Below, piece by piece: positions 3,445 through 46,216 of a stretch of 64,000 nt of DNA. The translations under genes and the position numbers were made by a program. The stretch comes from Kiritimatiellia bacterium (GTDB lineage Bacteria; Verrucomicrobiota; Kiritimatiellia; CAIVKH01): the NCBI GenBank assembly GCA_023953695.1, contig JAMLJG010000003.1, positions 106,885-170,884 on the forward strand, given 5' to 3'. The notes below the pieces were generated by a model. It was given only the letters and a program-made list of their open reading frames with translations, made no database searches and was not told where the DNA came from. The stretch's first letter is position 1. Each line of letters opens with the position of its first letter.

Positions 3445-4938
3445 ATGAAAATCATCAAGCTGAAGTCGGGCACACCCTTGCCGAAGGATGCCGCCCTGGC
3501 CATTCCCCTGTGGTCCGACGAACCATCGGCACGAAACACCCTGTTCTCCACCCTTCCCGACGGCCTTTGGAATGAAGTGGAGGGATGGATCAAACAGATT
3601 CGCTTCAAAGCGACAGAAGGCTCGTTTTCTCATGGGCGCGTTCTCCTGAAGGAACGCCTCTACGATGTCTTCCTGTTCGGCTGCGGTCCCGGCCATCAAG
3701 CACATGCGGGTATTCTGCGCCGAGCGGGCGGGCGTGCAGCAGTCGAGGCGCAGCGACTGGGCGTGTCCACCGTTGCTCCAGTTTTCCCAGAGCGTACCCT
3801 CACCACCTTTCCGAACAAATGGGTGCGCGCTTTCGCCATTGGTTTCTACGAGGGCACCTATCAACTTCGCCCGTCAAAAGATTCCACCTCCAAACCGCTC
3901 CAACTGGCGTTGCAAAGTAGCGCTCCAGCCGCTCTCTCTGAAGACCTCAAGTGGGGCATTTCCATCGGCAGTGCGATCAACAAAATACGCGATATCGCCA
4001 ACCAGCCCGGAAACCAGGCTCCCCCGCGCGTCATCGCGAATCACGCCCAGGCACTTGCGAAGGAACTCGGCATCTCCTGCTCAATCTGGGATCGAGCAGA
4101 GCTGAAAAAACAGCGCTGCCACGCCATTCTCGCAGTCGGCCAGGGTAGCTCAGAAGAGCCTCGTCTCATCCGCTTGACCTATCCCGGTCGCAAGAAAAAT
4201 CTCCGGCCTCTCGTCGTGGTCGGAAAAACAATCACGTTCGACACAGGCGGCATTTCCCTCAAACCCTCCAAGAACATGGAGTGGATGAAGTTCGATAAAT
4301 GCGGGGGCATGACCGTCCTCGCCTTCATGGCAATAGTCGCATCGGTCATCAAACCCGATCGCCCGGTGATCGGAATCCTCACCTCGGCGGAAAATATGCC
4401 GAGCGGAACCGCAACCCGCCCCGGCGATATCATTCAAAGTCGCAGCGGGAAGACCATCGAGGTCCTCAACACGGATGCGGAAGGACGCCTCGTCCTGGCT
4501 GATGCCCTGGACATTGCATCGGAACTCAAACCTCATTGCATCATTGATTTGGCCACTCTGACTGGTGCGGCATCGGTCGCATTGGGTCGGCCAGCCTCGC
4601 CCATCATGGCGAATGACAACAACCTTCTCAAGAGCCTCCAAGAGGCCGGCGATGCCGTTGGCGATCGCGTGTGGCCTTTGCCGCTCTTTCCCGACTATGA
4701 GCGCATGCTCAACTCGCCCTTCGCCGATCTGAAAAACATCGGCGACGGCAGTGCGGGCACCATCATCGGCGGCACCTTCCTCAAGTTCTTCGTACGCCCA
4801 GATATTCCCTGGGCTCACATTGACCTCACCTCCGCATGGGAAGAACGAGCCACCTCGCATGGACCCGCTGGTGCAACACTCTTTGGCGCAGCGCTCCTTG
4901 CTCAATGGCTCGAATCCATCACCACCAAGACACCATGA
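3445..4938 (+). CDS. pepA: Leucyl aminopeptidase (M17 family)
   Basis: Carries the M17 signature NTDAEGRLVLADAL and is 497 aa. Confidence 0.9.
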   Translation: MKIIKLKSGTPLPKDAALAIPLWSDEPSARNTLFSTLPDGLWNEVEGWIKQIRFKATEGSFSHGRVLLKERLYDVFLFGCGPGHQAHAGILRRAGGRAAVEAQRLGVSTVAPVFPERTLTTFPNKWVRAFAIGFYEGTYQLRPSKDSTSKPLQLALQSSAPAALSEDLKWGISIGSAINKIRDIANQPGNQAPPRVIANHAQALAKELGISCSIWDRAELKKQRCHAILAVGQGSSEEPRLIRLTYPGRKKNLRPLVVVGKTITFDTGGISLKPSKNMEWMKFDKCGGMTVLAFMAIVASVIKPDRPVIGILTSAENMPSGTATRPGDIIQSRSGKTIEVLNTDAEGRLVLADALDIASELKPHCIIDLATLTGAASVALGRPASPIMANDNNLLKSLQEAGDAVGDRVWPLPLFPDYERMLNSPFADLKNIGDGSAGTIIGGTFLKFFVRPDIPWAHIDLTSAWEERATSHGPAGATLFGAALLAQWLESITTKTP

Positions 4939-10042: not shown

Positions 10043-10067
10043 TTTTTGCGACTCTTGCCCGCCTTTT

Positions 10068-10106
10068 CAGCGCGCCCACCCCGGTTGGCGCGCTGAATTG
10101 TTTAAT
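10068..10106 (+). terminator. Candidate rho-independent terminator after the ppiD-like gene
   Basis: Nine-bp GC-rich stem CAGCGCGCC/GGCGCGCTG with a 10-nt loop, followed by the T-rich tract AATTGTTTAATCTT. Confidence 0.45.
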
Positions 10107-10107
10107 C

Positions 10108-10154
10108 TTCCAATCCTTGGAAGCCCCAACCCACTCGTTTTCCAATCCTTGGAA
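10108..10154. promoter_or_regulatory. Two copies of the perfect palindrome TTCCAATCCTTGGAA (10108-10122 and 10140-10154), 32 bp centre-to-centre, upstream of the BMC operon
   Basis: Read directly from the sequence. The same dyad (TTCCAATCGTTGGAA) recurs twice with identical spacing at 19524-19570. Confidence 0.5.
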
Positions 10155-10383
10155 GTTGCCGCTGGCGAATCGTCCGATCGCACGGCGCAGCCTCTCAGTT
10201 CTGCGCCCATTGGCGGACCGGAGGGAGAAATGCCGACTTCGCGACTGAAACCGCCCCATTCTCAAAGCGCAAAAACAGGCTGGAATAGACAATTTTCACC
10301 GCAATGCGGTTCTCTTTAAGGAAAATAGTTGCAACGCGGCAATGCACCGTGCAGACTGATTGCGGATTTGTGCGCAACTCAGA

Positions 10384-11640
10384 ATGAAGCATCCTTTGAA
10401 AATAGCGATCGGCTCCGACCACGGCGGATTCGAACTCAAACAGCAACTTATTCCTTATCTCACGAGCCTTGGCCACGCCGTCACGGACGTGGGAACCAAC
10501 AGCAAGGACGCCGTTGATTATCCCCGTTTTGCATACGCCGTGGCGTCCAGCGTGTCGAGCGGCAGAGCCGATGTAGGAATTGTGATTGATGGCGCGGGGA
10601 TTGGATCGGCCATGACGGCCAACAAGGTTCCCGGCGTTCTAGCTGCCGCCTGCTACAACGAAGCGCTGGCCAGGAACTCGCGCGAGCACAACAACGCCAA
10701 CGTCTTGACTTTGGGCAGCGGTCAAATTGACCTTGCCGCTGCGAAACAGATTGCTTACATTTTCTTAACGACCGAGTGCACGGCGGACCGCCACTTGGCG
10801 CGCGTTAAGCTGATAAAGGAAGTAGAAGGCCGATCTATGTCTGGAAATGATTTGTCGCCGGAAGATGTGCAACGGGTAGCAGAGCGAGTGAAGCAGCTCT
10901 TGGGAGGGAAAAGCGGCTCCAGCGCCGCCATAGCGCGCCCCCTTTCGGCTGAACAAGTGGCAAAAATGATTGACCACACCCTGTTGAAGGCCGAAGCGAC
11001 GCCTGCCGATGTGGAAAAGCTCTGTGCGGAGGCCAGGAAACACGGATTTTGGTCGGTCTGCGTCAACTCCGCCTATGTCAAACAGGCCAAGGCGCTGCTC
11101 CGCGACTCCCGCACCAAGGTTTGCGCCGTTGTGGGCTTCCCTCTCGGCGCCATGGAGCCGCAGATCAAATCCCTCGAAACACGCAAGGCGCTGCGCGACG
11201 GCGCGAACGAGATTGACATGGTCATCAACATCGGCGCGCTCAAAGCGCGGGATGATGCCACGGTGCTGCGCGATATTCGCGGCGTAGTGGAAAACTGCAA
11301 GGACAGCCGCGCGATTTGCAAAGTGATTTTGGAGACCTCCCTCCTGAACGACGAAGAAAAGACCCGCGCCTGCCAGTTGAGCATGAAGGCGGGCGCCGAT
11401 TTTGTGAAGACCTCGACGGGATTTTCGACGGGCGGCGCCACGGCGGAAGACATTGCGCTGATGGCGCGCACGGTTGCTTCCCGCAAGTTGGGCGTGAAGG
11501 CTTCTGGGGGCGTTCGGACATACGCGGATATTGTGAAGATGGTCAATGCGGGCGCCACGCGCGTCGGGTGTTCGAATAGTGTGAAAATCATGGAAGAGAT
11601 CAGCACCGGCGTCGCACAGTCCGGTGGCAAGGGATATTGA
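10384..11640 (+). CDS. Fusion protein: ribose-5-phosphate isomerase B (RpiB/LacAB family) joined to deoxyribose-5-phosphate aldolase (DeoC)
   Basis: The N-terminal half matches RpiB ([19 protein letters not shown]...). The C-terminal half matches DeoC ([11 protein letters not shown]...VCVNSAYV...[11 protein letters not shown]...VKTSTGF...[10 protein letters not shown]). The track start at 10360 is TTG; the ATG at 10384 fits the RpiB N-terminus. Confidence 0.85.
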
Positions 11641-11669
11641 ACAGTTCGGGTTAACTGAAGGAGAAGGTC

Positions 11670-12305
11670 ATGGCGGAACTACGGTGCTATGCGTTTATTG
11701 ATAGCTTGCAGCCACAATTTGCCTCGTTTTTGGGAACGGTGGCACAGGGGTTTCTCCCCACAACTCACCAGGCGGCGCTTTTTGTTGAAATCGCGCCCGG
11801 TATGGAGATCAACCGCGTAACGGATGTGGCGCTGAAGGCCACCAATGTGACGCCGGGCATGATGATCGTCGAGCGCTTGTACGGCATGCTCGAGATCCAC
11901 TCGCACTCGCAAGCGGACGTCCGTCAGGCGGGCCAGGCGATTCTCGACGCGCTTGAACTCAAAGAGGATGATCGCATTAAGCCCAAACTGCTGACGAGTC
12001 AGGTGATCCGAAACGTGTCGGACTATCACACGCAGCTCGTCAACCGCATGCGCCATGGCAATATGTTGCTGCCGGGCCACTCGCTCTATGTGATGGAGTG
12101 TGCGCCTGCGGGCTATGCCGCGATTGCCGCCAATGAGGCGGAAAAGGCGGCCAACATCAACATTCTCGAAGTTCGAGCCGTCGGCAGCTTCGGGCGCATT
12201 TATCTCGGTGGCGAAGAGCGCGACGTTGATGTCGGGTATCGCGCAGCCGAAAAGGCCTTGGAGGTCATTTCGGGTCGCGAGGAAAAATCGGGCCGAGGCG
12301 GTTAA
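11670..12305 (+). CDS. BMC shell protein, tandem BMC-domain type (BMC-T), divergent
   Basis: Two BMC-domain-like halves: VTDVALKATNVTPGMMIVERLYGMLEIHSHSQADVRQAGQA and AAIAANEAEKAANINILEVRAVGSFGRIYLGGEERDVDVGYRAAEKA. The RBS is GAAGGAGAAGG. Confidence 0.7.
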   Translation: MAELRCYAFIDSLQPQFASFLGTVAQGFLPTTHQAALFVEIAPGMEINRVTDVALKATNVTPGMMIVERLYGMLEIHSHSQADVRQAGQAILDALELKEDDRIKPKLLTSQVIRNVSDYHTQLVNRMRHGNMLLPGHSLYVMECAPAGYAAIAANEAEKAANINILEVRAVGSFGRIYLGGEERDVDVGYRAAEKALEVISGREEKSGRGG

Positions 12306-12347
12306 TCAACAACAACTCGTTAGCGAACAGAAAAGGGAGATACGCAC

Positions 12348-12647
12348 ATGGCAGAAGCACTAGGCATGATTGAGACGCGGTCATTTCCGGCCGTGGTGGA
12401 AGCGGCGGATGCGGCGGTAAAGGCCGCCAAGGTCGAGCTGGTTTCGTTCGAAAAGACCGGCGGCGGCTACGTCTCCGTTATTATTCGCGGTGATGTCGCA
12501 GCGGTAAAAGCGGCTTGTGACGCAGCGCAAGTTGCCGGCGGTCGCGTCGGTGAAGTTGTGGCTGTCCACGTCATTGCCCGCCCCCACAGCAATGTGGATG
12601 CGGTCTTGCCGTTGGGTCGCCAGGGCGAATCGAAAGCGAAGAAATAA
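12348..12647 (+). CDS. BMC shell hexamer protein (BMC-H, PduA/CcmK/EutM-like)
   Basis: [29 protein letters not shown]...[23 protein letters not shown] is the canonical Pfam00936-type sequence. The RBS is AAGGGAG. Confidence 0.92.
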
Positions 12648-12663
12648 GGCAATTGCGCGATCC

Positions 12664-12688
12664 AATTGCCAGTCGCGCACTGGCAATT
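12664..12688 (+). other. Perfect 10-bp inverted repeat hairpin (AATTGCCAGT-cgcgc-ACTGGCAATT) in the BMC-H/BMC-P intergenic space
   Basis: Read directly. It lies 17 nt after the BMC-H stop codon and 24 nt before the BMC-P start. Confidence 0.6.
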
Positions 12689-12711
12689 TCATCTAGCAAT
12701 TAGCAGATTTC

Positions 12712-13026
12712 ATGCAGCTCGCCCGCATAGTTGGATCGGTCGTCGCCACACGAAAAGAGCCCACGCTGAATGGGCTCCGATTGATGCTGGTTCGACCCTT
12801 GGACGACGCGGGCCGCGAGACGGGATCTGTGCTTGTCGCCGCCGATGCGGTTGGAGCCGGTGTGGAGGAAGTTGTCCTCATCGCCTCCGGCAGCTCGGCG
12901 CGGCAGACGCAGCAGACTGACAAGCGGCCGGTGGACGCCGTGATCATGGCCATCGTGGATTCCTGGGACGTGAACGGCGAAGAGAAATATCGAAAAAGTA
13001 AAGAAGTGAAGGTCGCGGAAGAATAG
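12712..13026 (+). CDS. BMC vertex pentamer protein (BMC-P, EutN/CcmL/PduN family), copy 1
   Basis: [30 protein letters not shown]...[11 protein letters not shown] is a typical EutN/PduN N-terminus. Confidence 0.85.
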
Positions 13027-13114
13027 TGATGTCGAATTGCACGCGATGCACGCGAATCAGCGTGCGCTCGTGTTGAACGATCATCCCCCGCGGCCTTCGA
13101 GTGGAGGCTAGTAC

Positions 13115-14557
13115 ATGGCACGTCTCACGGATGCCGATATTGACGCGATCGCGCGCAGAATTGTCGCGGATTTGGATCAGCGCCCTCTCGAGAGCGTCCC
13201 CGCTCCCGCCGCTGTTGCATCGGCGGACCGCGAGTTGGGCATCTTCCCCACGGTGGATGAAGCCGTCAAAGCGGCGCGCGAGGCACAGCCTGTTTTTGTG
13301 GCGCTTCCGCTCAAGAAGCGAGCGCAGATCATTGCCGCGATTCGATCGGTCATGCTGGAGAACGCGGCGATCCTCGCGAAGGCCGCTCACGAGGAGACCG
13401 GGCTGGGTCGCTTCGAAGACAAGATCACAAAGAATATTCTCGTCACCGAGAAGACGCCCGGCATTGAACACCTGACTCCGGAAGCCATCACGGGTGATCA
13501 CGGGTTGACGCTCATTGAACCCGCCCCCTTTGGCGTCATTGGCGCGATTACGCCCACCACAAACCCGACATCAACGATCATTTGCAACACGATTGGAATG
13601 ATTGCCGCAGGCAACACAGTTGTCTTCAACGTACATCCGGGCGCAAAGAATTGCTCCATGCAGACCGTGGCCTTGATCAACAAGACTATTGTTGCCAGTG
13701 GCGGGCCGCGGAACGTGGTCACATGTATTTCCAACCCCACCATCGAAAGCGCGGGGGCCTTGATGCACCACGCTCATATTCGCCTCGTGGTGGTCACCGG
13801 TGGCGGTGGCGTCGTGAAGGCGGCGATGAAGAGCGGGAAGCGTGCCATTTGTGCAGGCCCCGGCAACCCGCCCGTCGTGGTGGATGAAACCGCCGACATC
13901 GCCAAGGCGGGTCGCGATATCGTGCTCGGCGCCTCGACAGACAACAACATTATTTGCGCTGATGAAAAGCAGGTCTTCGTCGTGGATAAAGTCGCGGATG
14001 ATCTGCTGAAGTCCATGCAGCAAAACAATGCGGTGCTGGTGGATCGCAGCAAGCTGGCGGCTTTGGAAAAGGTCATCTTCACCGAGATGCACGGGCCGCG
14101 GCAGGAGGCGCACATCAATCGCGACCTGATCGGAAAGAATGCCGAGGTGATCCTGAGCAAGATCGGGATCAATGTGCCGAGTTCCTGTCGGTTGGGAATC
14201 GTCGAAGTGGATGAAAACCATCCCCTGCTATGGACGGAGCAAATGATGCCCATTCTCCCCGTCTGCCGCGTCTCGAGCTGCGATTATGCAATTGATCTCG
14301 CGCTCAAGACCGAAGGTGGCAATCGGCACACAGCGGTAATGCACTCCAAGAACCTTGATAAACTCCATCGCATGGCGAAGGAGTCGAACTGCAGTATTTT
14401 TGTAAAGAACGGGCGCTCGCAAGCGGGCTTGGGCTTGGATGGTGAAGGCTATGTCTCCTTCACAATCGCCAGTCCTACCGGTGAGGGGCTGACAGGCCCG
14501 CGCACATTTTCACGCTGGCGGCGATGCGTGCTCGTTGATCACTTTAGGATCACGTGA
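13115..14557 (+). CDS. CoA-acylating aldehyde dehydrogenase (PduP/EutE-like BMC signature enzyme)
   Basis: FGVIGAITPTTNPTSTIICNTIGMIAAGN...ICAGPGNPPVVVD matches the catalytic-Cys region of acylating AldDH. The N-terminal segment MARLTDADIDAIARRIVADL is an amphipathic helix followed by a Pro/Ala linker, which is encapsulation-peptide-like. Confidence 0.9.
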   Translation: MARLTDADIDAIARRIVADLDQRPLESVPAPAAVASADRELGIFPTVDEAVKAAREAQPVFVALPLKKRAQIIAAIRSVMLENAAILAKAAHEETGLGRFEDKITKNILVTEKTPGIEHLTPEAITGDHGLTLIEPAPFGVIGAITPTTNPTSTIICNTIGMIAAGNTVVFNVHPGAKNCSMQTVALINKTIVASGGPRNVVTCISNPTIESAGALMHHAHIRLVVVTGGGGVVKAAMKSGKRAICAGPGNPPVVVDETADIAKAGRDIVLGASTDNNIICADEKQVFVVDKVADDLLKSMQQNNAVLVDRSKLAALEKVIFTEMHGPRQEAHINRDLIGKNAEVILSKIGINVPSSCRLGIVEVDENHPLLWTEQMMPILPVCRVSSCDYAIDLALKTEGGNRHTAVMHSKNLDKLHRMAKESNCSIFVKNGRSQAGLGLDGEGYVSFTIASPTGEGLTGPRTFSRWRRCVLVDHFRIT

Positions 14558-15168
14558 TGAAGAAATACCCGGCCATGGCCGTGGTTGAATTTGGGGAAAT
14601 CGGGAAGGGAATGTTCGCCACGGATAAGATGTTGAAGAAAGCGCCCATCGCTTTCATCCGTTGCGGGACGATCAGTCGCGGCCGCTATCTCACGGCCATC
14701 GGCGGCAGCACGGCGTCCGTTGGAGAGTCGTTTGATGAAGGTCTCTTTTGGGGTGGAGATGCAGTGCTGGACTCGGTCCTCCTCGCTGACGTGCACCCGC
14801 AAGTTCACGATGCAATTCTCGGGCAACATCGCCCGCAAGGGCGCGGTGCGCTGGCAATCGTAGAAACGCAAACTGTCGCGTGCAATGTGCGCGCCGCTGA
14901 GTTGGCGCTGAAAGGGACGCCGGTCAATCTCATGGAACTGCGATTGGCCGATGCCGGCTTGTCCGGGAAGGGCCTCAGCATCTATGAAGGTGAATTGTAC
15001 GACATCGAAGCCGCGATGGACATTGTCAGCGGGTTCTTGGAGGCGGCGGGGAAGGAGTTGAATTATCAAATCATCTCCTCGCCTCACGAAGCATTGGACA
15101 CGCGGATCACCTCGCACAGTCTTTTCGGTACGGCTCGCATGATCGAACTGGAAGGAGAATCCGGCTAA
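14557..15168 (+). CDS. BMC shell protein, tandem-domain BMC-T, PduT-like
   Basis: Aligns by eye along its full length with PduT (…GKGMFATDKMLKKAPIAFIR-C-GTISRGRYLTAIGG… / …LDSVLLADVHPQVHDAI… / …ALAIVETQTVACNVRAAELALKGTPVNL…). A Cys lies near the PduT Fe-S ligand position. The start ATG 14557 overlaps the AldDH stop as TGATG. Confidence 0.85.
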   Translation: MKKYPAMAVVEFGEIGKGMFATDKMLKKAPIAFIRCGTISRGRYLTAIGGSTASVGESFDEGLFWGGDAVLDSVLLADVHPQVHDAILGQHRPQGRGALAIVETQTVACNVRAAELALKGTPVNLMELRLADAGLSGKGLSIYEGELYDIEAAMDIVSGFLEAAGKELNYQIISSPHEALDTRITSHSLFGTARMIELEGESG

Positions 15169-15443
15169 TGCTACTCGGTCGCGTCACAGGCACGGTGGTC
15201 GCTACGATTGTGTACGAAGGCATGAGCGGTGTCCCCCTGCTCCTCGTTCAGCCACTCGACAAAACTGGGCAGCCCAAAGGCAAGGTCCTGGTTGCGGCTG
15301 ACGCCACGCGCATGGCAGGTGTGGGCGAGCTGATCTACTACGAAGGCGGTCGGGAAGCCGCGATGGCGCTCGATCCTTGGTTTGTTCCCGTGGATCACGC
15401 CATCATCGGAATCGTGGATAATTTGAACACTCAGGAATCGTAA
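15168..15443 (+). CDS. BMC vertex pentamer protein (BMC-P), copy 2
   Basis: MLLGRVTGTVVATIVYEGMSGVPLLLVQPL...VLVAADATRMAGVGE. TAATG overlap with the upstream gene. Confidence 0.85.
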   Translation: MLLGRVTGTVVATIVYEGMSGVPLLLVQPLDKTGQPKGKVLVAADATRMAGVGELIYYEGGREAAMALDPWFVPVDHAIIGIVDNLNTQES

Positions 15444-15445
15444 GC

Positions 15446-15727
15446 ATGTTCACCGGACGCGTCATCGGCCATATAGATTCGACCATCAACCATCCGTGGT
15501 ATGACGCGAAGAAGCTGCTCGTCGTCGAAAAAACAGATGCATCTGGAAAAGCAGCCTCCGACTACGTGATTGCAGTGGACACGGTTGGCGCAGGCGTAGG
15601 CGAGCCCGTGCTGGTCCTCGATGAAGGAAATGGCGCACGCCAAATTGTTGCCTCAAGTGACGCGCCCGTTCGCTCCGTAATCGTCGGGATCATAGACGAA
15701 ATTCATTGCCCGAATTCGGGTTCCTGA
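15446..15727 (+). CDS. BMC vertex pentamer protein (BMC-P), copy 3
   Basis: MFTGRVIGHIDSTINHPWYDAKKLLVVEKTD...VIAVDTVGAGVGE. Confidence 0.85.
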   Translation: MFTGRVIGHIDSTINHPWYDAKKLLVVEKTDASGKAASDYVIAVDTVGAGVGEPVLVLDEGNGARQIVASSDAPVRSVIVGIIDEIHCPNSGS

Positions 15728-15740
15728 CTAGACTCGCTTT

Positions 15741-16916
15741 ATGCGTGTATTCCTTATCGTCCTTGATTCCGTCGGGATAGGACACGCGCCAGATGCCGCT
15801 GATTACGGCGACGAAGGTGCGGCCACCCTACCCCACATCGCAGAGGCCGTCGGTGGTTTGCACCTGCCGACTTTTCAGAAACTGGGACTGGGCAATATCC
15901 CGCCCGTAACGCCGCGCCCGTTTCCCATTGATGGCGTTGCTCCCGCCGAAAAACCCTTGGCAAGCTATGGCGCCATGCGCGAGATGTCACAGGGCAAAGA
16001 CACGGTCACCGGACACTGGGAAATAGCGGGCTTGTTGTTGCAGCCGGGGTTTCACTTGTTCCCTCCGGGTCCGCCGTCATTTCCGCCCGAGGTGGTTGCT
16101 GCATTTGAGAAGGAAACCGGTCGCAAGATATTGGGTAACAAGGCCGCCAGCGGCGTTCCGATCATGGAGGAACTCGGCGAGCAGTCTTCGCGCGAGGGCA
16201 AGTGGATCGTCTACACGAGCGCGGACTCCGTCTTTCAGATCGCGGCCAACATTGATTTGATTCCTCTGGAGGAACTCTATCGCGCGTGCGAAGTGGCGCG
16301 AAGGCTGTGCGATCCGCTTCGAGTGGGCCGAGTCATTGCGCGACCCTTCCGAGGATCGGCCGGCGCCTATCAGCGCACAGAAGATCGCCGCGACTACGCA
16401 TTTCAACCGGATGAGCCGACAATTCTCGAGCGCCTCCATTCATCGGGCGTTCCCGTGTATGCCGTCGGCAAGATCGAGGACATCTTCGCGCATCGCGGAA
16501 TTACGAAAACCGATCACACAGGCAATAACCACACTTCGCAAAAAGCGGTCGAACGCTTCGCAGCCGAGATGAAGCGGGGCTTCCTGTTCGCGAACTTCAT
16601 TGATTTCGACATGCTCTACGGTCACCGGCGCGACCCCAAGGGCTATGCAGAGTCTTTGGTTCAAACCGATCAGTGGCTGGCCTCATTTTTGCCAACGCTG
16701 AAGTCGAGCGATACGCTCATCATTACCGCCGATCACGGCAACGATCCCACTTACAAGGGAACGGATCATACCCGCGAGGTGGTCCCCCTGCTGGTTTATC
16801 AACCCGGACAAGTGGCACAGAATCTGGGGTTGCGAGAGGGTTACTACGACATCGCACAATCGGTCGCCTCGCAATTCGGAATAGATTCACTCCCGCGAGG
16901 TCAATCTTTTCTCTAA
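15741..16916 (+). CDS. deoB: Phosphopentomutase
   Basis: Collinear with E. coli DeoB: VLDSVGIGHAPDAADYGDEGAATLPHIAE...TGHWEIAGL...YTSADSVFQIAA...GRVIARPF...ITADHGNDPT..GTDHTRE. Confidence 0.9.
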   Translation: MRVFLIVLDSVGIGHAPDAADYGDEGAATLPHIAEAVGGLHLPTFQKLGLGNIPPVTPRPFPIDGVAPAEKPLASYGAMREMSQGKDTVTGHWEIAGLLLQPGFHLFPPGPPSFPPEVVAAFEKETGRKILGNKAASGVPIMEELGEQSSREGKWIVYTSADSVFQIAANIDLIPLEELYRACEVARRLCDPLRVGRVIARPFRGSAGAYQRTEDRRDYAFQPDEPTILERLHSSGVPVYAVGKIEDIFAHRGITKTDHTGNNHTSQKAVERFAAEMKRGFLFANFIDFDMLYGHRRDPKGYAESLVQTDQWLASFLPTLKSSDTLIITADHGNDPTYKGTDHTREVVPLLVYQPGQVAQNLGLREGYYDIAQSVASQFGIDSLPRGQSFL

Positions 16917-16940
16917 ACGCTAATAGAAAGAGGTGTCCAG

Positions 16941-18263
16941 ATGCTTCCTCAATGGATAATCGAAAAGAAACGCGATGGGCAAACGCTTACGGAAGAGGAG
17001 ATTCGCTTCTTCATTGACGCCTACGCGAAAGAAAAGTTGCCCGATTATCAGATGGCGGCTATGGCCATGGCGATCTTCATTCGCGGCATGAATCCGAAGG
17101 AAATTGCGATTCTTACCGATGCCATGATGCGGTCGGGCGACCTGATCAATACCTCCTCCATCAAGAAACCCAAGGTGGACAAGCACTCGACCGGCGGGAT
17201 TGGCGACAAGGTCTCGCTCATTCTGGCCCCCCTTGTTGCCGCGTGCGGGTTGGCGGTGCCGATGATTTCCGGGCGCGGCCTCGGCATCACCGGCGGCACG
17301 TTGGACAAACTCGAGTCCATTCCCGGCTATCGCACCAATTTGAGTGATGCGGAGCTGATCCGGGTAATCAAGAAAATCGGCTGTTCCATCATCGGTCAGA
17401 CCAAACAACTCGCACCGGCCGATAAGAAACTCTACGCGCTCCGCGATGTCACGGGGACCGTCGCTTCTATTCCCCTGATCACGGCCAGCATCATGTGCAA
17501 GAAGCTCGCAGAAGGCCTTGATGGACTGCTTCTCGATGTGAAGTGCGGCAAGGGTGCGTTCATGCGCACGCAAAAAGATGCGCGCGCACTCGCGCTGACC
17601 ATGGTGCGTGTGGGAAATGCCATGGGCAAGCGCATGGCTGCGGTAATAACCGATATGAACCAAACATTGGGCAACACAGCGGGCAACGTCCTTGAAGTCG
17701 TGGAGTCCATTGAAACCCTGCAAAACCGGGGACCGAAGGATCTCACGGAACTCACCCTCGTTTCCGCTGAAGAAATGCTGATCCTGGGGCGAATCACCAA
17801 GTCGCGCGCCACCGCGCGCGCCATGGCAGAAAAGGCGCTCGCAGACGGATCGGCATTCAGGATATTCCGCAAAATGGTGGAGCTGCAAGGGGGCGACGTC
17901 CGCACCATTGACGATCCCTCGCGCTTGGCACAGGCCAAATTCAAAGTTCCGATGCCCGCTCCAGCATCCGGGTTTGTCTCGCTCGCGGATGCGGAATCCG
18001 TCGGCAAAGCTTGCGTAGTCTTGGGCGCTGGGCGCACACGCACGGACGAAGCAGTAGATCCTGCCGTAGGTATATCGCATATCCTGCACATCGGCGATGC
18101 CGTCACCAAAGGCGCTCCGCTCTTGGTGATTCATGCGAACGACAAGAAGCGATTGGCGGCTGCTCAAGAACTCTTGAAAGGCGCCTTCAAGATAGCGAAG
18201 TCCAAGCCGAAGACACCGAAGCTGATTTTGGAACGTATCAACGGCGAAACGATTGGGAAATAA
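16941..18263 (+). CDS. deoA: Thymidine/pyrimidine-nucleoside phosphorylase
   Basis: The KHSTGGIGDKVSL signature, with the N-terminal helical domain and alpha/beta domain typical of DeoA/Pdp. Confidence 0.9.
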   Translation: MLPQWIIEKKRDGQTLTEEEIRFFIDAYAKEKLPDYQMAAMAMAIFIRGMNPKEIAILTDAMMRSGDLINTSSIKKPKVDKHSTGGIGDKVSLILAPLVAACGLAVPMISGRGLGITGGTLDKLESIPGYRTNLSDAELIRVIKKIGCSIIGQTKQLAPADKKLYALRDVTGTVASIPLITASIMCKKLAEGLDGLLLDVKCGKGAFMRTQKDARALALTMVRVGNAMGKRMAAVITDMNQTLGNTAGNVLEVVESIETLQNRGPKDLTELTLVSAEEMLILGRITKSRATARAMAEKALADGSAFRIFRKMVELQGGDVRTIDDPSRLAQAKFKVPMPAPASGFVSLADAESVGKACVVLGAGRTRTDEAVDPAVGISHILHIGDAVTKGAPLLVIHANDKKRLAAAQELLKGAFKIAKSKPKTPKLILERINGETIGK

Positions 18264-18265
18264 TC

Positions 18266-19102
18266 ATGATAGACCGCACAATTCTCGACCAGGCGCTCTC
18301 CCACGTTCGCGGAAAGTGGCCCCATGCCCGCCCACGCCTTGGCATGATTCTCGGTTCCGGATGGAGCGAGGTCATTGGCTCTTTCAACGTCAAGGACGCG
18401 ATTTCCTACGAGGATATTCCGGGCCTGGGCAAGACCGGAGTCGTGGGTCACGCAGGTCGCCTCGTACTCGCGGAATCGGCTGGATTGGAGTTGCTCGTCT
18501 TTCAGGGGCGACGCCACTTCTACGAAGGCGTGGGTTGGACTCCCATTGCGCTCCCGATCTTTCTTCTTAAATCGCTCGGCGCCAAGACACTCCTCGTGAC
18601 CAATGCCGCAGGCGGGGTTAGGAAAGACCTCGTTCCGGGGACACTGATGATCATTTCCGATCACATCAACTTTCTCGGAGCCAACCCGCTGGTCGGCGCA
18701 CACGACAGTTTTTGGGGGCCGCGATTCCCGGATCAGAGCGAAGTGTACAACGCGTCGCTTCGCAAATTGATTGTCCAAGCAGGACAGAACGCGGGCGAGA
18801 CGCTTGCCGAAGGCGTCTATCTGGCGGACTCGGGGCCGACCTACGAATCGCCCGCTGAAATACGCGCGTTTGCCGCGCTTGGAGCTGACGCCGTTGGAAT
18901 GTCCACCGTTCCCGAAGCCCTGCTGGCCAATGCTGCGGGCTTGCGCGTGGCAGGACTCTCCTGCATCACGAATAGCGCGGCTGGCATTAGCGAGAATCCG
19001 CTCAGTCACGAGGAAGTGACCGAGACCACTCGTCTTGCAATGGAGCGCATGAAGAAGGTGCTTCTCAACTTTGTCGAGGAGGTGGCTCGTGAGCGCCGCT
19101 AA
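18266..19102 (+). CDS. Purine nucleoside phosphorylase (PNP/MTAP family, PunA-type)
   Basis: The start is the internal ATG 18266 (MIDRTILDQ...). Family motifs: GSGWSE, TNAAGG, GADAVGMSTVPE. Confidence 0.85.
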   Translation: MIDRTILDQALSHVRGKWPHARPRLGMILGSGWSEVIGSFNVKDAISYEDIPGLGKTGVVGHAGRLVLAESAGLELLVFQGRRHFYEGVGWTPIALPIFLLKSLGAKTLLVTNAAGGVRKDLVPGTLMIISDHINFLGANPLVGAHDSFWGPRFPDQSEVYNASLRKLIVQAGQNAGETLAEGVYLADSGPTYESPAEIRAFAALGADAVGMSTVPEALLANAAGLRVAGLSCITNSAAGISENPLSHEEVTETTRLAMERMKKVLLNFVEEVARERR

Positions 19103-19508
19103 ATCCGCTCTCCCGCGCAGTCAGGCGTTGAAACTTCTCCGCGCCGCCGCCCAGGTATCGCGCAACGCACACGCGCCCTACTCTGCGTTTCAGGTGGGTG
19201 CGGCCCTGTTGACGGATACGGGCGCAGTCATCTCGGGTTGCAATGTCGAGAATGCCTCATACGGACTCACCATTTGCGCCGAGCGCAACGCGATTTTTCA
19301 TGCGGTCGCTGTGAAGAAGCGAAAGTTCAAGGCGGTGGCCATCGTTGCGAGCGGAAAGCAAATGCCTTTCCCGTGCGGCGCCTGCCGTCAGGTCCTCGCC
19401 GAATTCGGATCGCCGGAGATGGTGGTCCTCGTCGCGCCGCGCGCAAAGTTGGCCGATTATATGGAGCTAACGCTCGGCGAACTCCTGCCCCATTCCTTCA
19501 AGTTTTGA
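19071..19508 (+). CDS. cdd: Cytidine deaminase
   Basis: CAERNAI...PCGACRQ zinc-ligand motifs. The start is either ATG 19071 (overlapping the PNP 3' end) or GTG 19089. Confidence 0.85.
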   Translation: MSRRWLVSAAKSALPRSQALKLLRAAAQVSRNAHAPYSAFQVGAALLTDTGAVISGCNVENASYGLTICAERNAIFHAVAVKKRKFKAVAIVASGKQMPFPCGACRQVLAEFGSPEMVVLVAPRAKLADYMELTLGELLPHSFKF

Positions 19509-19523: not shown

Positions 19524-19570
19524 TTCCAATCGTTGGAAAGCCCTCGCGATAGAACTTCCAATCGTTGGAA
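19524..19570. promoter_or_regulatory. Two copies of the perfect palindrome TTCCAATCGTTGGAA (19524-19538 and 19556-19570), 32 bp apart, in the convergent gap between cdd and gspF
   Basis: Read directly. Same dyad arms and same 32-bp spacing as the pair at 10108-10154. Confidence 0.5.
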
Positions 19571-30593: not shown

Positions 30594-31376
30594 ATGAATC
30601 TCGGACTTGAAGGTCGGCATGCATGGCTCGGCGCCGCGAGCGATGGCCTTGGCTACGCTTGCGCTCACGCCCTCGTTGAGGAAGGCTGCCACGCCACCCT
30701 TGTGGCACGGCGACTCGATCAACTGGATCGCGCGCGCAATCAACTAGCCGCTGCCGAAAGGGTCCGCACCCTCTCTCTGGACTTGGGCACGATGGAGGGC
30801 CAAGTTGCGGCATGCGCAGACATCGAGCGAACCGAGCCGGATATTCTATTGCTCAATACGGGTGGGCCCCCGCCCGGCGGGACCACAGAACACAGCGAAG
30901 AAGCGTGGGAGCATGCCCAGCAGTTGATTCTGGCATCGGCCCGCAAACTCACTGCTGCGGCGTTGCCAGCGATGCGAAGAAGGCGCTGGGGCCGCATCAT
31001 TGCCATCGCCTCCTTCACTGTAATTGAACCTGCTGAGCGCTTGGCGCTCAGCAACGTCTTTCGAACCGCGCTAGTCGCTTACCTCAAAACGCTGTCGCGC
31101 GAAGTGGCGGCAGAGGGCATCACGGTGAATTGCGTTTTGCCGGGCAATTTTCTCACCAGCCGCCTACGGCAACTGATTGCAGATCGCGCAAAGCGCGAGG
31201 GAAAATCGGACAACGAAATTGAGGATGCCATGCGGGCCGCATTGCCGCAGCGCAGATTCCAAGACACCGCCGACCTCGCAGCCCTCGTCGCCCTTCTCTC
31301 CTCGGAGCGCGGCGCGTCCATCACGGGCACGGCTATTCCCGTTGATGGCGGAATGTCCCGATTCCTGTTGGGCTAA
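30594..31376 (+). CDS. Short-chain dehydrogenase/reductase (SDR) family oxidoreductase
   Basis: Gly-rich NAD(P)-binding N-terminus GAASDGLG and an SDR C-terminal pattern. Confidence 0.75.
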   Translation: MNLGLEGRHAWLGAASDGLGYACAHALVEEGCHATLVARRLDQLDRARNQLAAAERVRTLSLDLGTMEGQVAACADIERTEPDILLLNTGGPPPGGTTEHSEEAWEHAQQLILASARKLTAAALPAMRRRRWGRIIAIASFTVIEPAERLALSNVFRTALVAYLKTLSREVAAEGITVNCVLPGNFLTSRLRQLIADRAKREGKSDNEIEDAMRAALPQRRFQDTADLAALVALLSSERGASITGTAIPVDGGMSRFLLG

Positions 31377-44791: not shown

Positions 44792-46216
44792 TTGTCCCTT
44801 GCCCCAATCTCGGCTGCGACTTTTGATCCGCGTGCAACCCGCATTGCACAACGTCTGCAAGAGGCCGGATTCCAAACCGTCTTCGCCGGTGGCTGTGTTC
44901 GCGACGCACTTCTGGGTCGGCCGCCTCAAGACATAGATATCGCGACCAGCGCCAAACCCGAAGAAGCAGCCACGCTCTTTCCCAAAGCTCGCTTCATCGG
45001 CAAGGCATTCGGCGTCACCCTGATTTCACAGGAAGGTGCGCATTTCGAAGTTGCCACTTTCCGTCGCGATGTCGGCTCTCGCGACGGACGCCGACCGGAA
45101 CGCATTGAATATGCCCCCGCCGAGCAAGATGCCCGACGGCGCGATTTCACCATTAACGGAATCTTCTTCGACCCCATACACGAGAAGGTCTTGGATTTCG
45201 TCGAAGGCATCAGCGACTTGCAGCAGCGGATCATCCGCGCAATCGGCGATCCCCTCTCCCGCTTCGAAGAAGACCACCTCCGCTTGCTTCGTGCCGTCCG
45301 CTTCGCCGCCACGCTGCAATTTAAGATTGATCCCCAGACGCTCGCCGCCATGCGCACTTCGGCGCCACAAATTCAGCGCATCAGCGCCGAGCGCATTCTT
45401 CAGGAACTCACTCGCATCTGGACAGAATCCGTCCCGCCAGGAACGGGACTTCGCCTCTTGCAGAGCAGCGGTTTGCTTCGCGAAATCCTGCCCGAAATCG
45501 AGGCGATGGTGGGTGTTGTCCAACCCCCGGAATACCACCCCGAAGGCGATGTCTTTATCCACACGGCGCTCGCACTCGATCAGTTGCACGAACCCGACCC
45601 TGCCCTCGCCTGGGCCACTCTCCTCCATGATGTCGGAAAGCCGCCGACCTATCGCGAAGTGCAGGAAGATGGCAAATTGCGCATCCGCTTTGACAGGCAC
45701 GCCGCAGTAGGAGCCGAAATTGCCGATGCCCTATTGCGCCGTCTCCGCGCATCTAACGAACTGCGCGAAGCTGTAGTTCATGCCGTTCGCCAACACATGC
45801 GATTCTTGGATTGGCCCAATATGAAGGTGAGCACGCGGCGAAAGATTGTGGCGCACCCGCTCTTTTTGCTCGATCTGGGTCTGCATCGCGCGGATTGCCT
45901 CGCCAGCAACGGGTTTTTGGACACGCATGAAAAGGCAAAGCGCGAATATGAGCAACTGTGTGCCGAACGACCCTTACCAGTTCCCTGGATCAACGGAAAC
46001 GACATCATGCAACGCGGTATCCCGCCGGGCCCCCGCGTTGGATATTGGAGACAACGCGCGTTCGATGCCCAACTGGAAGGCCAGTTCGCCAGTCGCGAGG
46101 AGTTGCTCGATTGGCTAACCGAAACAATCAAGCAGAATCCAGACATGAATCCGGCGGCTGACGAAGCATCACCCAACCCGCCACGCCCAACGCCAAAATC
46201 AGATTCATCAGCATGA
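44792..46216 (+). CDS. CCA tRNA nucleotidyltransferase / poly(A) polymerase family enzyme with HD domain
   Basis: GGCVRDALLGRPPQDIDIAT...RRDFTINGIF head domain and an HD region (HDVGK). No in-frame ATG near the N-terminus, so a TTG start at 44792. Confidence 0.75.
   Translation: MSLAPISAATFDPRATRIAQRLQEAGFQTVFAGGCVRDALLGRPPQDIDIATSAKPEEAATLFPKARFIGKAFGVTLISQEGAHFEVATFRRDVGSRDGRRPERIEYAPAEQDARRRDFTINGIFFDPIHEKVLDFVEGISDLQQRIIRAIGDPLSRFEEDHLRLLRAVRFAATLQFKIDPQTLAAMRTSAPQIQRISAERILQELTRIWTESVPPGTGLRLLQSSGLLREILPEIEAMVGVVQPPEYHPEGDVFIHTALALDQLHEPDPALAWATLLHDVGKPPTYREVQEDGKLRIRFDRHAAVGAEIADALLRRLRASNELREAVVHAVRQHMRFLDWPNMKVSTRRKIVAHPLFLLDLGLHRADCLASNGFLDTHEKAKREYEQLCAERPLPVPWINGNDIMQRGIPPGPRVGYWRQRAFDAQLEGQFASREELLDWLTETIKQNPDMNPAADEASPNPPRPTPKSDSSA

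Follow-up and report, generated by a model that had tools for sequence, protein, structure and literature searches.

The spacer between the genes of the hexameric shell protein (BMC-H) and the pentameric vertex protein (BMC-P) in a microcompartment (BMC) operon of an uncultivated Kiritimatiellia lineage holds a strong hairpin that is preserved through compensatory changes in close relatives, and strong hairpins are specifically enriched at the same BMC-H to BMC-P junction (H→P), and not at the BMC-T to BMC-H junction (T1→H), in at least ten phylum-level groups. Such a position-specific, selected RNA hairpin after the major shell gene is most likely a dosage element. A shell is built from hundreds to thousands of hexamer subunits and just 60 vertex subunits, with enzymes required in intermediate quantities, and one operon encodes them all. 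With slightly more confidence than doubt, we infer that the hairpin is an intercistronic 3' stabiliser of the mRNA, and in some lineages a partial terminator, which raises the dosage of BMC-H; it would act at the RNA level, via differential stability or attenuation.

The window (i.e., the whole stretch of 64,000 nucleotides that was analysed) contains one co-directional, tightly spaced operon in which the hairpin is embedded (Table 1). The sugar-phosphate utilisation (SPU) microcompartment was defined by Sutter et al. 2021 (PMC8217296) as a locus in which shell genes for BMC-H, BMC-T, and BMC-P are accompanied by an acylating aldehyde dehydrogenase, a DeoC-type aldolase (PF01791) and an RpiB-type isomerase (PF02502); hairpins, terminators or stoichiometry are not mentioned in that work. 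The window locus has the whole of this set and is thus an SPU-type (sugar-phosphate/nucleoside) microcompartment, with the gene order RpiB-DeoC fusion, BMC-T, BMC-H, BMC-P, acylating aldehyde dehydrogenase, BMC-T, and two BMC-P, and with phosphopentomutase, pyrimidine and purine nucleoside phosphorylases and cytidine deaminase as later genes, the last of these closing the operon. Pfam recovered three PF00936 and three PF03319 shell domains, and the aldehyde dehydrogenase shares 96% identity with proteins named by their sources as Kiritimatiellia MAG proteins. That BMC-H is a single gene, as the preliminary description had it, is correct within the window, where one copy was found by tblastn and Pfam. 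Its stop codon, TAA, was read at 12645–12647. The start of BMC-P is ATG 12712, as an in-frame stop at 12694 leaves no earlier start possible, and its homologues align from residue 1, matching this start. The BMC-P leader has no Shine-Dalgarno motif, unlike BMC-H, which is preceded by a Shine-Dalgarno-like GGGAG.

Table 1 Coordinates of the features discussed, given as window positions except for the last line
Feature	Position	Strand	Basis or description
SPU-type BMC operon containing the hairpin	10360–19508	+	Pfam; gene order kept in 179 related loci
RpiB-DeoC fusion	10360–11640	+	PF02502 and PF01791
BMC-H (hexameric shell protein), 99 aa	12348–12647	+	PF00936, E 6e−28
Intercistronic spacer BMC-H to BMC-P, 64 nt	12648–12711	+	Sequence read
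Full nested hairpin, about 21 bp, −22.4 kcal/mol	12649–12704	+	RNA folding; outer helix partly covaries in relatives
Core hairpin, 10-bp stem and pentaloop CGCGC	12664–12688	+	Sequence, fold, compensatory changes in L161 and L163
BMC-P leader 3' of the core	12689–12711	+	A/U-rich; the outer and middle helices take up no more than its first 16 nt (to 12704)
BMC-P (pentameric vertex protein, EutN/CcmL family), 104 aa	12712–13026	+	PF03319, E 3e−31
Aldehyde dehydrogenase	13115–14557	+	PF00171
eutM→eutN spacer, E. coli K-12 (L180)	16052–16157	−	106 nt; 10-bp hairpin, U-rich run, second hairpin; z −3.0

Upstream of the operon, right after a SurA-like gene, a G+C-rich hairpin of 11 bp, whose tail is T-rich (TTGTTTAATCTT), is found at 10066–10097; it is a convincing intrinsic terminator separating the SurA-like gene from the BMC operon, and served as the local reference for terminators. 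The entire operon is also bracketed by two pairs of a 15-bp palindrome, TTCCAA-N3-TTGGAA, which occurs four times in the window (0.16 expected), both pairs having a 32-nt spacing. One pair (10108–10122 and 10140–10154) is placed after the upstream terminator, ahead of the first gene of the operon, and is kept in two close-relative contigs (L161 and L162), while the other (19524–19538 and 19556–19570) follows right after the stop of the cytidine deaminase gene. These pairs are candidates for an operator pair or a locus-boundary repeat.

A perfect 10-bp inverted repeat had been described in the spacer, and this was confirmed, with the arms AATTGCCAGT (12664–12673) and ACTGGCAATT (12679–12688) enclosing the loop CGCGC (12674–12678). 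Only four of the ten pairs of the core stem are G-C, with A-U pairs at its base; the stem starts 16 nt past the BMC-H stop and ends 23 nt before the BMC-P AUG. RNA folding gave −12.6 kcal/mol for the core (z −4.2), and −26.9 kcal/mol for the region 12640–12720 (z −4.1), a value that none of 200 shuffles equalled. In the full fold the core is nested within a middle helix (12659–12661 with 12691–12693) and an outer helix (12649–12656 with 12696–12704, one bulge), with ensemble pair probabilities of 0.9–1.0 for the core and 0.8–1.0 for the nested helices overall. The spacer had also been called unusually rich in CAATT; four copies are indeed present (12650, 12663, 12684, and 12697), but they are no independent oddity, because they are the arms of the nested outer and inner helices, and direct and inverted copies look alike because AATT is self-complementary. 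As dispersed motifs, GCAATTGC and GGCAATT occur in the window at chance frequency only.

Perfect hairpins with a stem of at least 10 bp and a loop of 3–10 nt number four in the 64 kb, compared with 0–1 (mean 0.3) per composition-preserving shuffle, and only two of them are intergenic, i.e., the one between BMC-H and BMC-P and the terminator after the SurA-like gene. The other two perfect 10-bp hairpins (31031–31053 and 45060–45088) are located inside long plus-strand ORFs (30594–31376 and 44792–46216, respectively). The pattern of the BMC-H to BMC-P hairpin is single-copy in the window even with three mismatches allowed (0 expected). A search of positions 11500–14000 against Rfam 15 with E up to 10 returned no relevant match, only two chance snoRNA-like ones.

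Other pairings are possible in the same spacer. A call made by the terminator scan on the minus strand (12670–12648) was rejected: there the first and second CAATT motifs simply pair with each other instead, and the run behind them is complementary to the A-rich BMC-H end. Two helices compete with the core, an 8-bp hairpin at 12648–12670 (−8.5 kcal/mol) and an 8-bp G+C-rich helix of 12654–12661 with the loop region of the core (12672–12679), the latter being favoured over the core (−14.1 vs. −12.0 kcal/mol) as long as the transcript reaches no further than 12688. A ribosome terminating on BMC-H would open both, and both could be due to chance, GCGCG being a low-complexity sequence.

Genome and metagenome scans with BMC-H and BMC-P recovered no near-identical genome (best amino-acid identities 85% and 75%), and tblastn of BMC-H against plasmids gave no match. 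Close relatives were instead obtained by a protein search with the aldehyde dehydrogenase together with contig look-ups, which provided contigs L161–L179, whose aldehyde dehydrogenases are 81–96% identical to that of the window. All of them have the gene order of the window and an H→P spacer of 54–84 nt that is dominated by a long hairpin (−21 to −45 kcal/mol). The hairpins of L161 and L163 are clearly homologous to the one in the window: stem pair 9 has changed from G-C to A-T in L161, while L163 differs by three substitutions in each arm, all of them mutually compensatory, and has two pairs added. The loops (CGCGC, TTCAC, and CTTCCC) are unrelated. Across an alignment of five sequences 84% of the cells were paired, compared with 74% in shuffles (1 of 500), seven pairs were altered on both sides against 2.9 expected (4 of 500), and slid registers were only 17–50% paired; these pair counts were not taken from a MAFFT alignment of the spacers alone, as this mis-aligned L163. 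In L167–L170 and L176–L179, which are about 89–90% identical to the window in the enzyme, a different hairpin sequence is present at the same position, and therefore the sequence turns over fast while the hairpin persists.

Two observations on individual relatives may be added here. The public gene call in L161 starts BMC-P at 3642 (86 aa), while it is ATG 3588 (gene 3588–3902, 104 aa) that matches the first residue of the window protein and of its homologues, so that the deposited start looks too far downstream and inflates the apparent spacer. The more distant Kiritimatiellae MAG L004 has a 12-bp perfect hairpin after BMC-H (approximately 4601–4629) with the same pentaloop and closing pairs as in the window (..GGT CGCGC ACC..), a shared tip that may be a remnant of common hairpin ancestry or a coincidence.

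In order to look beyond close relatives, 160 further loci from many phyla were gathered from the genome scan with BMC-H and the metagenome scan with BMC-P. Their gene order is almost invariant (RpiB/DeoC, BMC-T, BMC-H, BMC-P, aldehyde dehydrogenase, BMC-T, BMC-P, BMC-P). The junction analysis covered 165 non-identical orthologous H→P junctions, with structure statistics computed on gaps of 40–200 nt and z-scores taken against dinucleotide shuffles. The gap lengths are bimodal, with 69 gaps of 30 nt or less, 10 of 31–49 nt, 78 of 50–200 nt, and 8 longer ones. A hairpin at this junction is present in about half of the related operons, and is absent, with a gap of at most 30 nt, in about 42% of the orthologous loci; because of the latter, we regard it as an optional tuning device that is dispensable for a working SPU locus.

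In the H→P gaps (n = 81) the median z was −2.66, with 65% below −2 and an uninterrupted helix of at least 8 bp in 80%. The corresponding values for the T1→H gaps of the same operons (n = 105) were −0.07, 12%, and 16%, and those for the gaps between BMC-P and the aldehyde dehydrogenase (P→ALD, n = 50) were −0.66, 30%, and 42%. H→P and T1→H gaps differed with p = 1.7e−16 (Mann-Whitney) and, when length-matched at 50–100 nt, with p = 3e−11, both values being without phylogenetic correction, for which the clustering of gap sequences is a partial remedy. The 81 H→P gaps fall into 71 clusters that have no detectable sequence similarity to each other, therefore structure and position are kept and sequence is not. 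According to their record names, hairpin-bearing loci belong to Verrucomicrobiota, Kiritimatiellia, Planctomycetota/Phycisphaerae, Elusimicrobia, Calditrichaeota, Chloroflexota, Actinomycetota, Acidobacteria, Eisenbacteria, and Myxococcales/Deltaproteobacteria. The distance from the stop codon to the helix has a family median of 16 nt (IQR 11–24), and that from the helix to the next start codon a median of 23 nt (IQR 17–36). Strong hairpins are also present after the first BMC-P in some orthologous loci, and a few loci have one after the second BMC-T, at the BMC-T to BMC-P junction (n = 8, median z −3.2), so that there may be several expression steps in some lineages.

In 50 of 80 gaps the fold of the sense strand is better than that of the antisense strand (Wilcoxon p = 0.005), and G-U pairs are more numerous in it (227 vs. 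183), an asymmetry that favours a transcript-level role with modest support. In the window itself antisense folds slightly better than sense (−25.9 vs. −23.8), and the perfect palindrome there is compatible with action on either strand.

Next to an mRNA-stabilising hairpin, a partial terminator had been proposed. In this reading the hairpin would be a leaky Rho-independent terminator at which the polymerase stops in some rounds so that fewer transcripts reach BMC-P and the enzymes. The position is right, some U follows the stem (AAUUUCAUCU, spanning the stem end), a canonical hairpin with at least 5 T in 8 nt is found in 8 of the 81 H→P gaps compared with 1 of the 105 T1→H and none of the 50 P→ALD gaps (L001, with GCCCCGGGGC...GCCCCGGGGTTTTTCG, is an example), and in E. 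coli the eutM→eutN hairpin is followed by UCUCUCCUUUUUCAUUUU. In the window, however, the base of the stem is A-U-rich, and the tail TCATCTAGCAAT, which had been described as moderately U-rich, scores 1.37 against 3.13 for the terminator at 10066–10097, so that this wording was generous and the U-tract is a poor one. Of the G+C-rich stem and the U-tract directly 3' of it that mark an intrinsic terminator, the stem is borderline (four G-C pairs in 10 bp, −12 kcal/mol) and the tract is lacking, and the consensus terminator scan made no plus-strand call at this place. About 90% of the orthologous hairpins are likewise without a U-tract, and U content past the longest helix shows no enrichment family-wide (1.58 T per 8 nt vs. 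1.42 expected from composition). The terminator proposal is thus weak for the window, where we consider it unlikely and the hairpin more likely a stabiliser than a canonical terminator; leaky termination would still be compatible with the stabiliser reading, because a terminator hairpin also stabilises the 3' end that it makes. Less probable still is a translational insulator or occluder, which would uncouple BMC-P from the ribosome traffic on BMC-H and partly bury the BMC-P initiation region, keeping the vertex protein scarce and leaving genes further downstream unaffected. The full fold extends over the entire spacer, and in its outermost helix GAAAU, at the stop of BMC-H (12641–12645), pairs with AUUUC (12707–12711) right before the AUG. 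The window BMC-P lacks a Shine-Dalgarno motif. In E. coli the level of EutN is about 100-fold below that of EutM, yet EutE, encoded further downstream, recovers to 27% (PMC11334477), from which it follows that the scarcity of EutN is largely translational. The reach of the outermost helix to the bases before the AUG makes the insulator plausible for the window itself, but the geometry of the family as a whole suits it poorly: 23 nt stay free between the core stem and the AUG, as in the median family member, a good unpaired GGAGG is present between hairpin and start in many other phyla, the outermost helix consists of invariant coding-flank bases with almost no covariation, and the outer helices would in any case be melted by ribosomes that terminate on BMC-H.

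The fast turnover of the hairpin sequence, even among relatives with 89–90% identical enzymes, its absence from many loci, and a spacer that resembles duplicated arm motifs are what a neutral palindrome without any expression role would show, whether it arose as a REP/MITE-like insertion or by slippage or duplication in a permissive spacer. We judge this improbable, as compensatory substitutions keep the pairing and the enrichment is confined to H→P and missing from equally long T1→H spacers. Moreover, no second copy (up to three mismatches) exists in the 64-kb window, and none of 57 orthologous hairpins is repeated in its own locus, a comparison of limited power at about 7 kb per locus; whole hairpins were used for this test, a single arm with one mismatch being uninformative in GC-rich DNA. 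Membership in a REP/MITE family, which requires many near-identical intergenic copies, was rejected, given one copy in 64 kb. The perfect dyad symmetry would also suit a DNA-level operator, i.e., the site of a dimeric transcription factor inside the operon that acts as a roadblock or controls an internal promoter, and a TTGCC...GGCAA core is partly conserved in the window, L161, and L166, and degenerate in L163 (ATGCC...GGCAT) and L164. Against this, the arms covary rather than conserve their sequence, arms and loops are unrelated in other relatives, the spacer has no plus-strand promoter-like site, and the motif is not repeated elsewhere in the window, which makes an operator the most remote of the explanations considered. 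A sigma-54 (−24/−12) reading of TGGCAA...AGCAAT was dismissed as well, since by eye the GG-to-GC spacing is 2–3 nt too long in both the window and L161.

Taken together, the placement, strand, U-tract, and repeat results favour a generic, ribosome-proof 3' barrier to exonucleases. A stable stem-loop is located immediately 3' of the more-required cistron in what is one transcription unit, judging from the tight co-directional genes and from a spacer free of plus-strand promoter-like sites, and it has been selectively maintained in orthologous operons (compensatory changes, junction enrichment across 165 loci). Because a ribosome that terminates on BMC-H reaches not quite as far as the start of the core stem, this stem can stay folded on a heavily translated mRNA, and because it ends well before the AUG, it does not bury the next ribosome-binding region. 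In the proposed stabiliser mechanism, the whole operon would be transcribed as one mRNA, which an endonuclease would cut in an A/U-rich, weakly translated region 3' of the hairpin, the leader at 12689–12711 being the candidate cleavage site. The 3'→5' exonucleases would then degrade the downstream part and stall at the hairpin, such that the surviving upstream segment ending with BMC-H would be more stable, and BMC-H message and protein would accumulate in excess of the vertex protein and the enzymes. In the minority of lineages with a hairpin and a U-tract at the same position the element is probably a leaky terminator, with an equal net effect. The original suggestion that this hairpin sets shell stoichiometry thus stands in so far as a real, conserved hairpin is enriched at exactly the H→P junction, as predicted for a dosage-setting element, while its terminator component is weak and the hairpin itself optional.

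Intercistronic hairpins that protect 3' ends and thereby set the stoichiometry of complexes, a mode of control known as selective RNA processing and stabilisation (SRPS) or differential operon decay, have been described for malE-malF and genome-wide in E. coli (PMC5927463), and also for the cip-cel cellulosome operon (PMC4423207). A position that is retained between orthologues despite sequence drift is documented in both papers. As in malE-malF with its REP hairpin, in the Rhodobacter puf operon, and in cip-cel of Ruminiclostridium cellulolyticum, the BMC stem-loop is located directly 3' of the most-needed cistron, in a co-directional operon for a multi-subunit assembly, mostly without a U-tract, and with its position kept while its sequence drifts. 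Unlike the malE-malF element, it is single-copy and no member of a REP family. With intrinsic terminators that act as intra-operon attenuators it shares the hairpin past a stop codon and, in about 10% of the orthologues and in eutM→eutN, a U-rich tail, but it differs from them in the A-U-rich stem base and poor U-tail of the window hairpin and in the missing U-tract of most orthologues.

Analogous elements had been claimed for other BMC operons as well, and here the outcome was mixed. The E. coli K-12 eut operon is tightly packed except for a 216-nt eutH→eutG gap, yet the eutM→eutN spacer measures 106 nt and holds a terminator-like 10-bp hairpin that starts 10 nt past the stop codon; the eutM-eutN region had no Rfam match. 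This locus (EUT1) has the same order of hexamer, pentamer, and aldehyde dehydrogenase as the window and an unusually long spacer in both, while the two sequences are dissimilar and the E. coli element is set apart by its clear U-rich tail and an additional hairpin. Proteomics of the E. coli Eut system gave values of 96 for EutM, 1 for EutN, and 27 for EutE, with the hexamer EutM as the most abundant shell protein (PMC11334477), which fits a moderate mRNA-level step after eutM plus a separate translational repression of the vertex protein. The claim failed for the E. coli pdu operon, in which pduA/pduB and pduJ/pduK overlap and no such hairpin follows pduA or pduJ, i.e., this operon reaches its shell stoichiometry without one. 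Regulatory RNA hairpins between microcompartment genes are also found in the EUT2 loci of Firmicutes as terminators controlled by ANTAR (EutV). These are ligand- and regulator-controlled, each terminator being preceded and overlapped by two tandem short hairpins whose hexaloops have A in position 1 and G in position 4. The window element has a single hairpin with the pentaloop CGCGC, no dual-hairpin motif, and no Rfam match. A search of the accessible literature for a hairpin or terminator after a BMC shell gene, eutM→eutN included, found no description. For the cso operon of Halothiobacillus a transcript study reportedly exists.

Hairpins that tune operons are already well known as a kind, and it is their recurrence across phyla in SPU BMCs that appears not to have been reported before. 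It is conceivable, although we would put it at somewhat less than an even chance, that placing a hairpin behind the major hexamer gene, barely outside the ribosome footprint, is a recurrent and independently re-evolved design rule that sets the shell-to-cargo stoichiometry at the mRNA level. The basis for this tentative rule, which would be new for BMCs, is given by the SPU loci of at least ten phylum-level groups together with the E. coli eut operon. In a bolder variant, the alternative helices could make the formation of the core depend on the translation of BMC-H, an attenuation-like coupling of dosage to translation. Apart from the Pdu and carboxysome models, little is understood of how operons encode this stoichiometry, a gap that limits BMC engineering. 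SPU is the most widespread uncharacterised BMC type, for which a simple, portable hairpin at the hexamer/pentamer junction, with a counterpart at eutM/eutN in E. coli, offers a testable handle, and the hairpin would also serve as a design part for synthetic shells. More generally, regulatory elements of uncultivated lineages can be recovered by a positional comparison of intergenic structures that does not depend on sequence homology.
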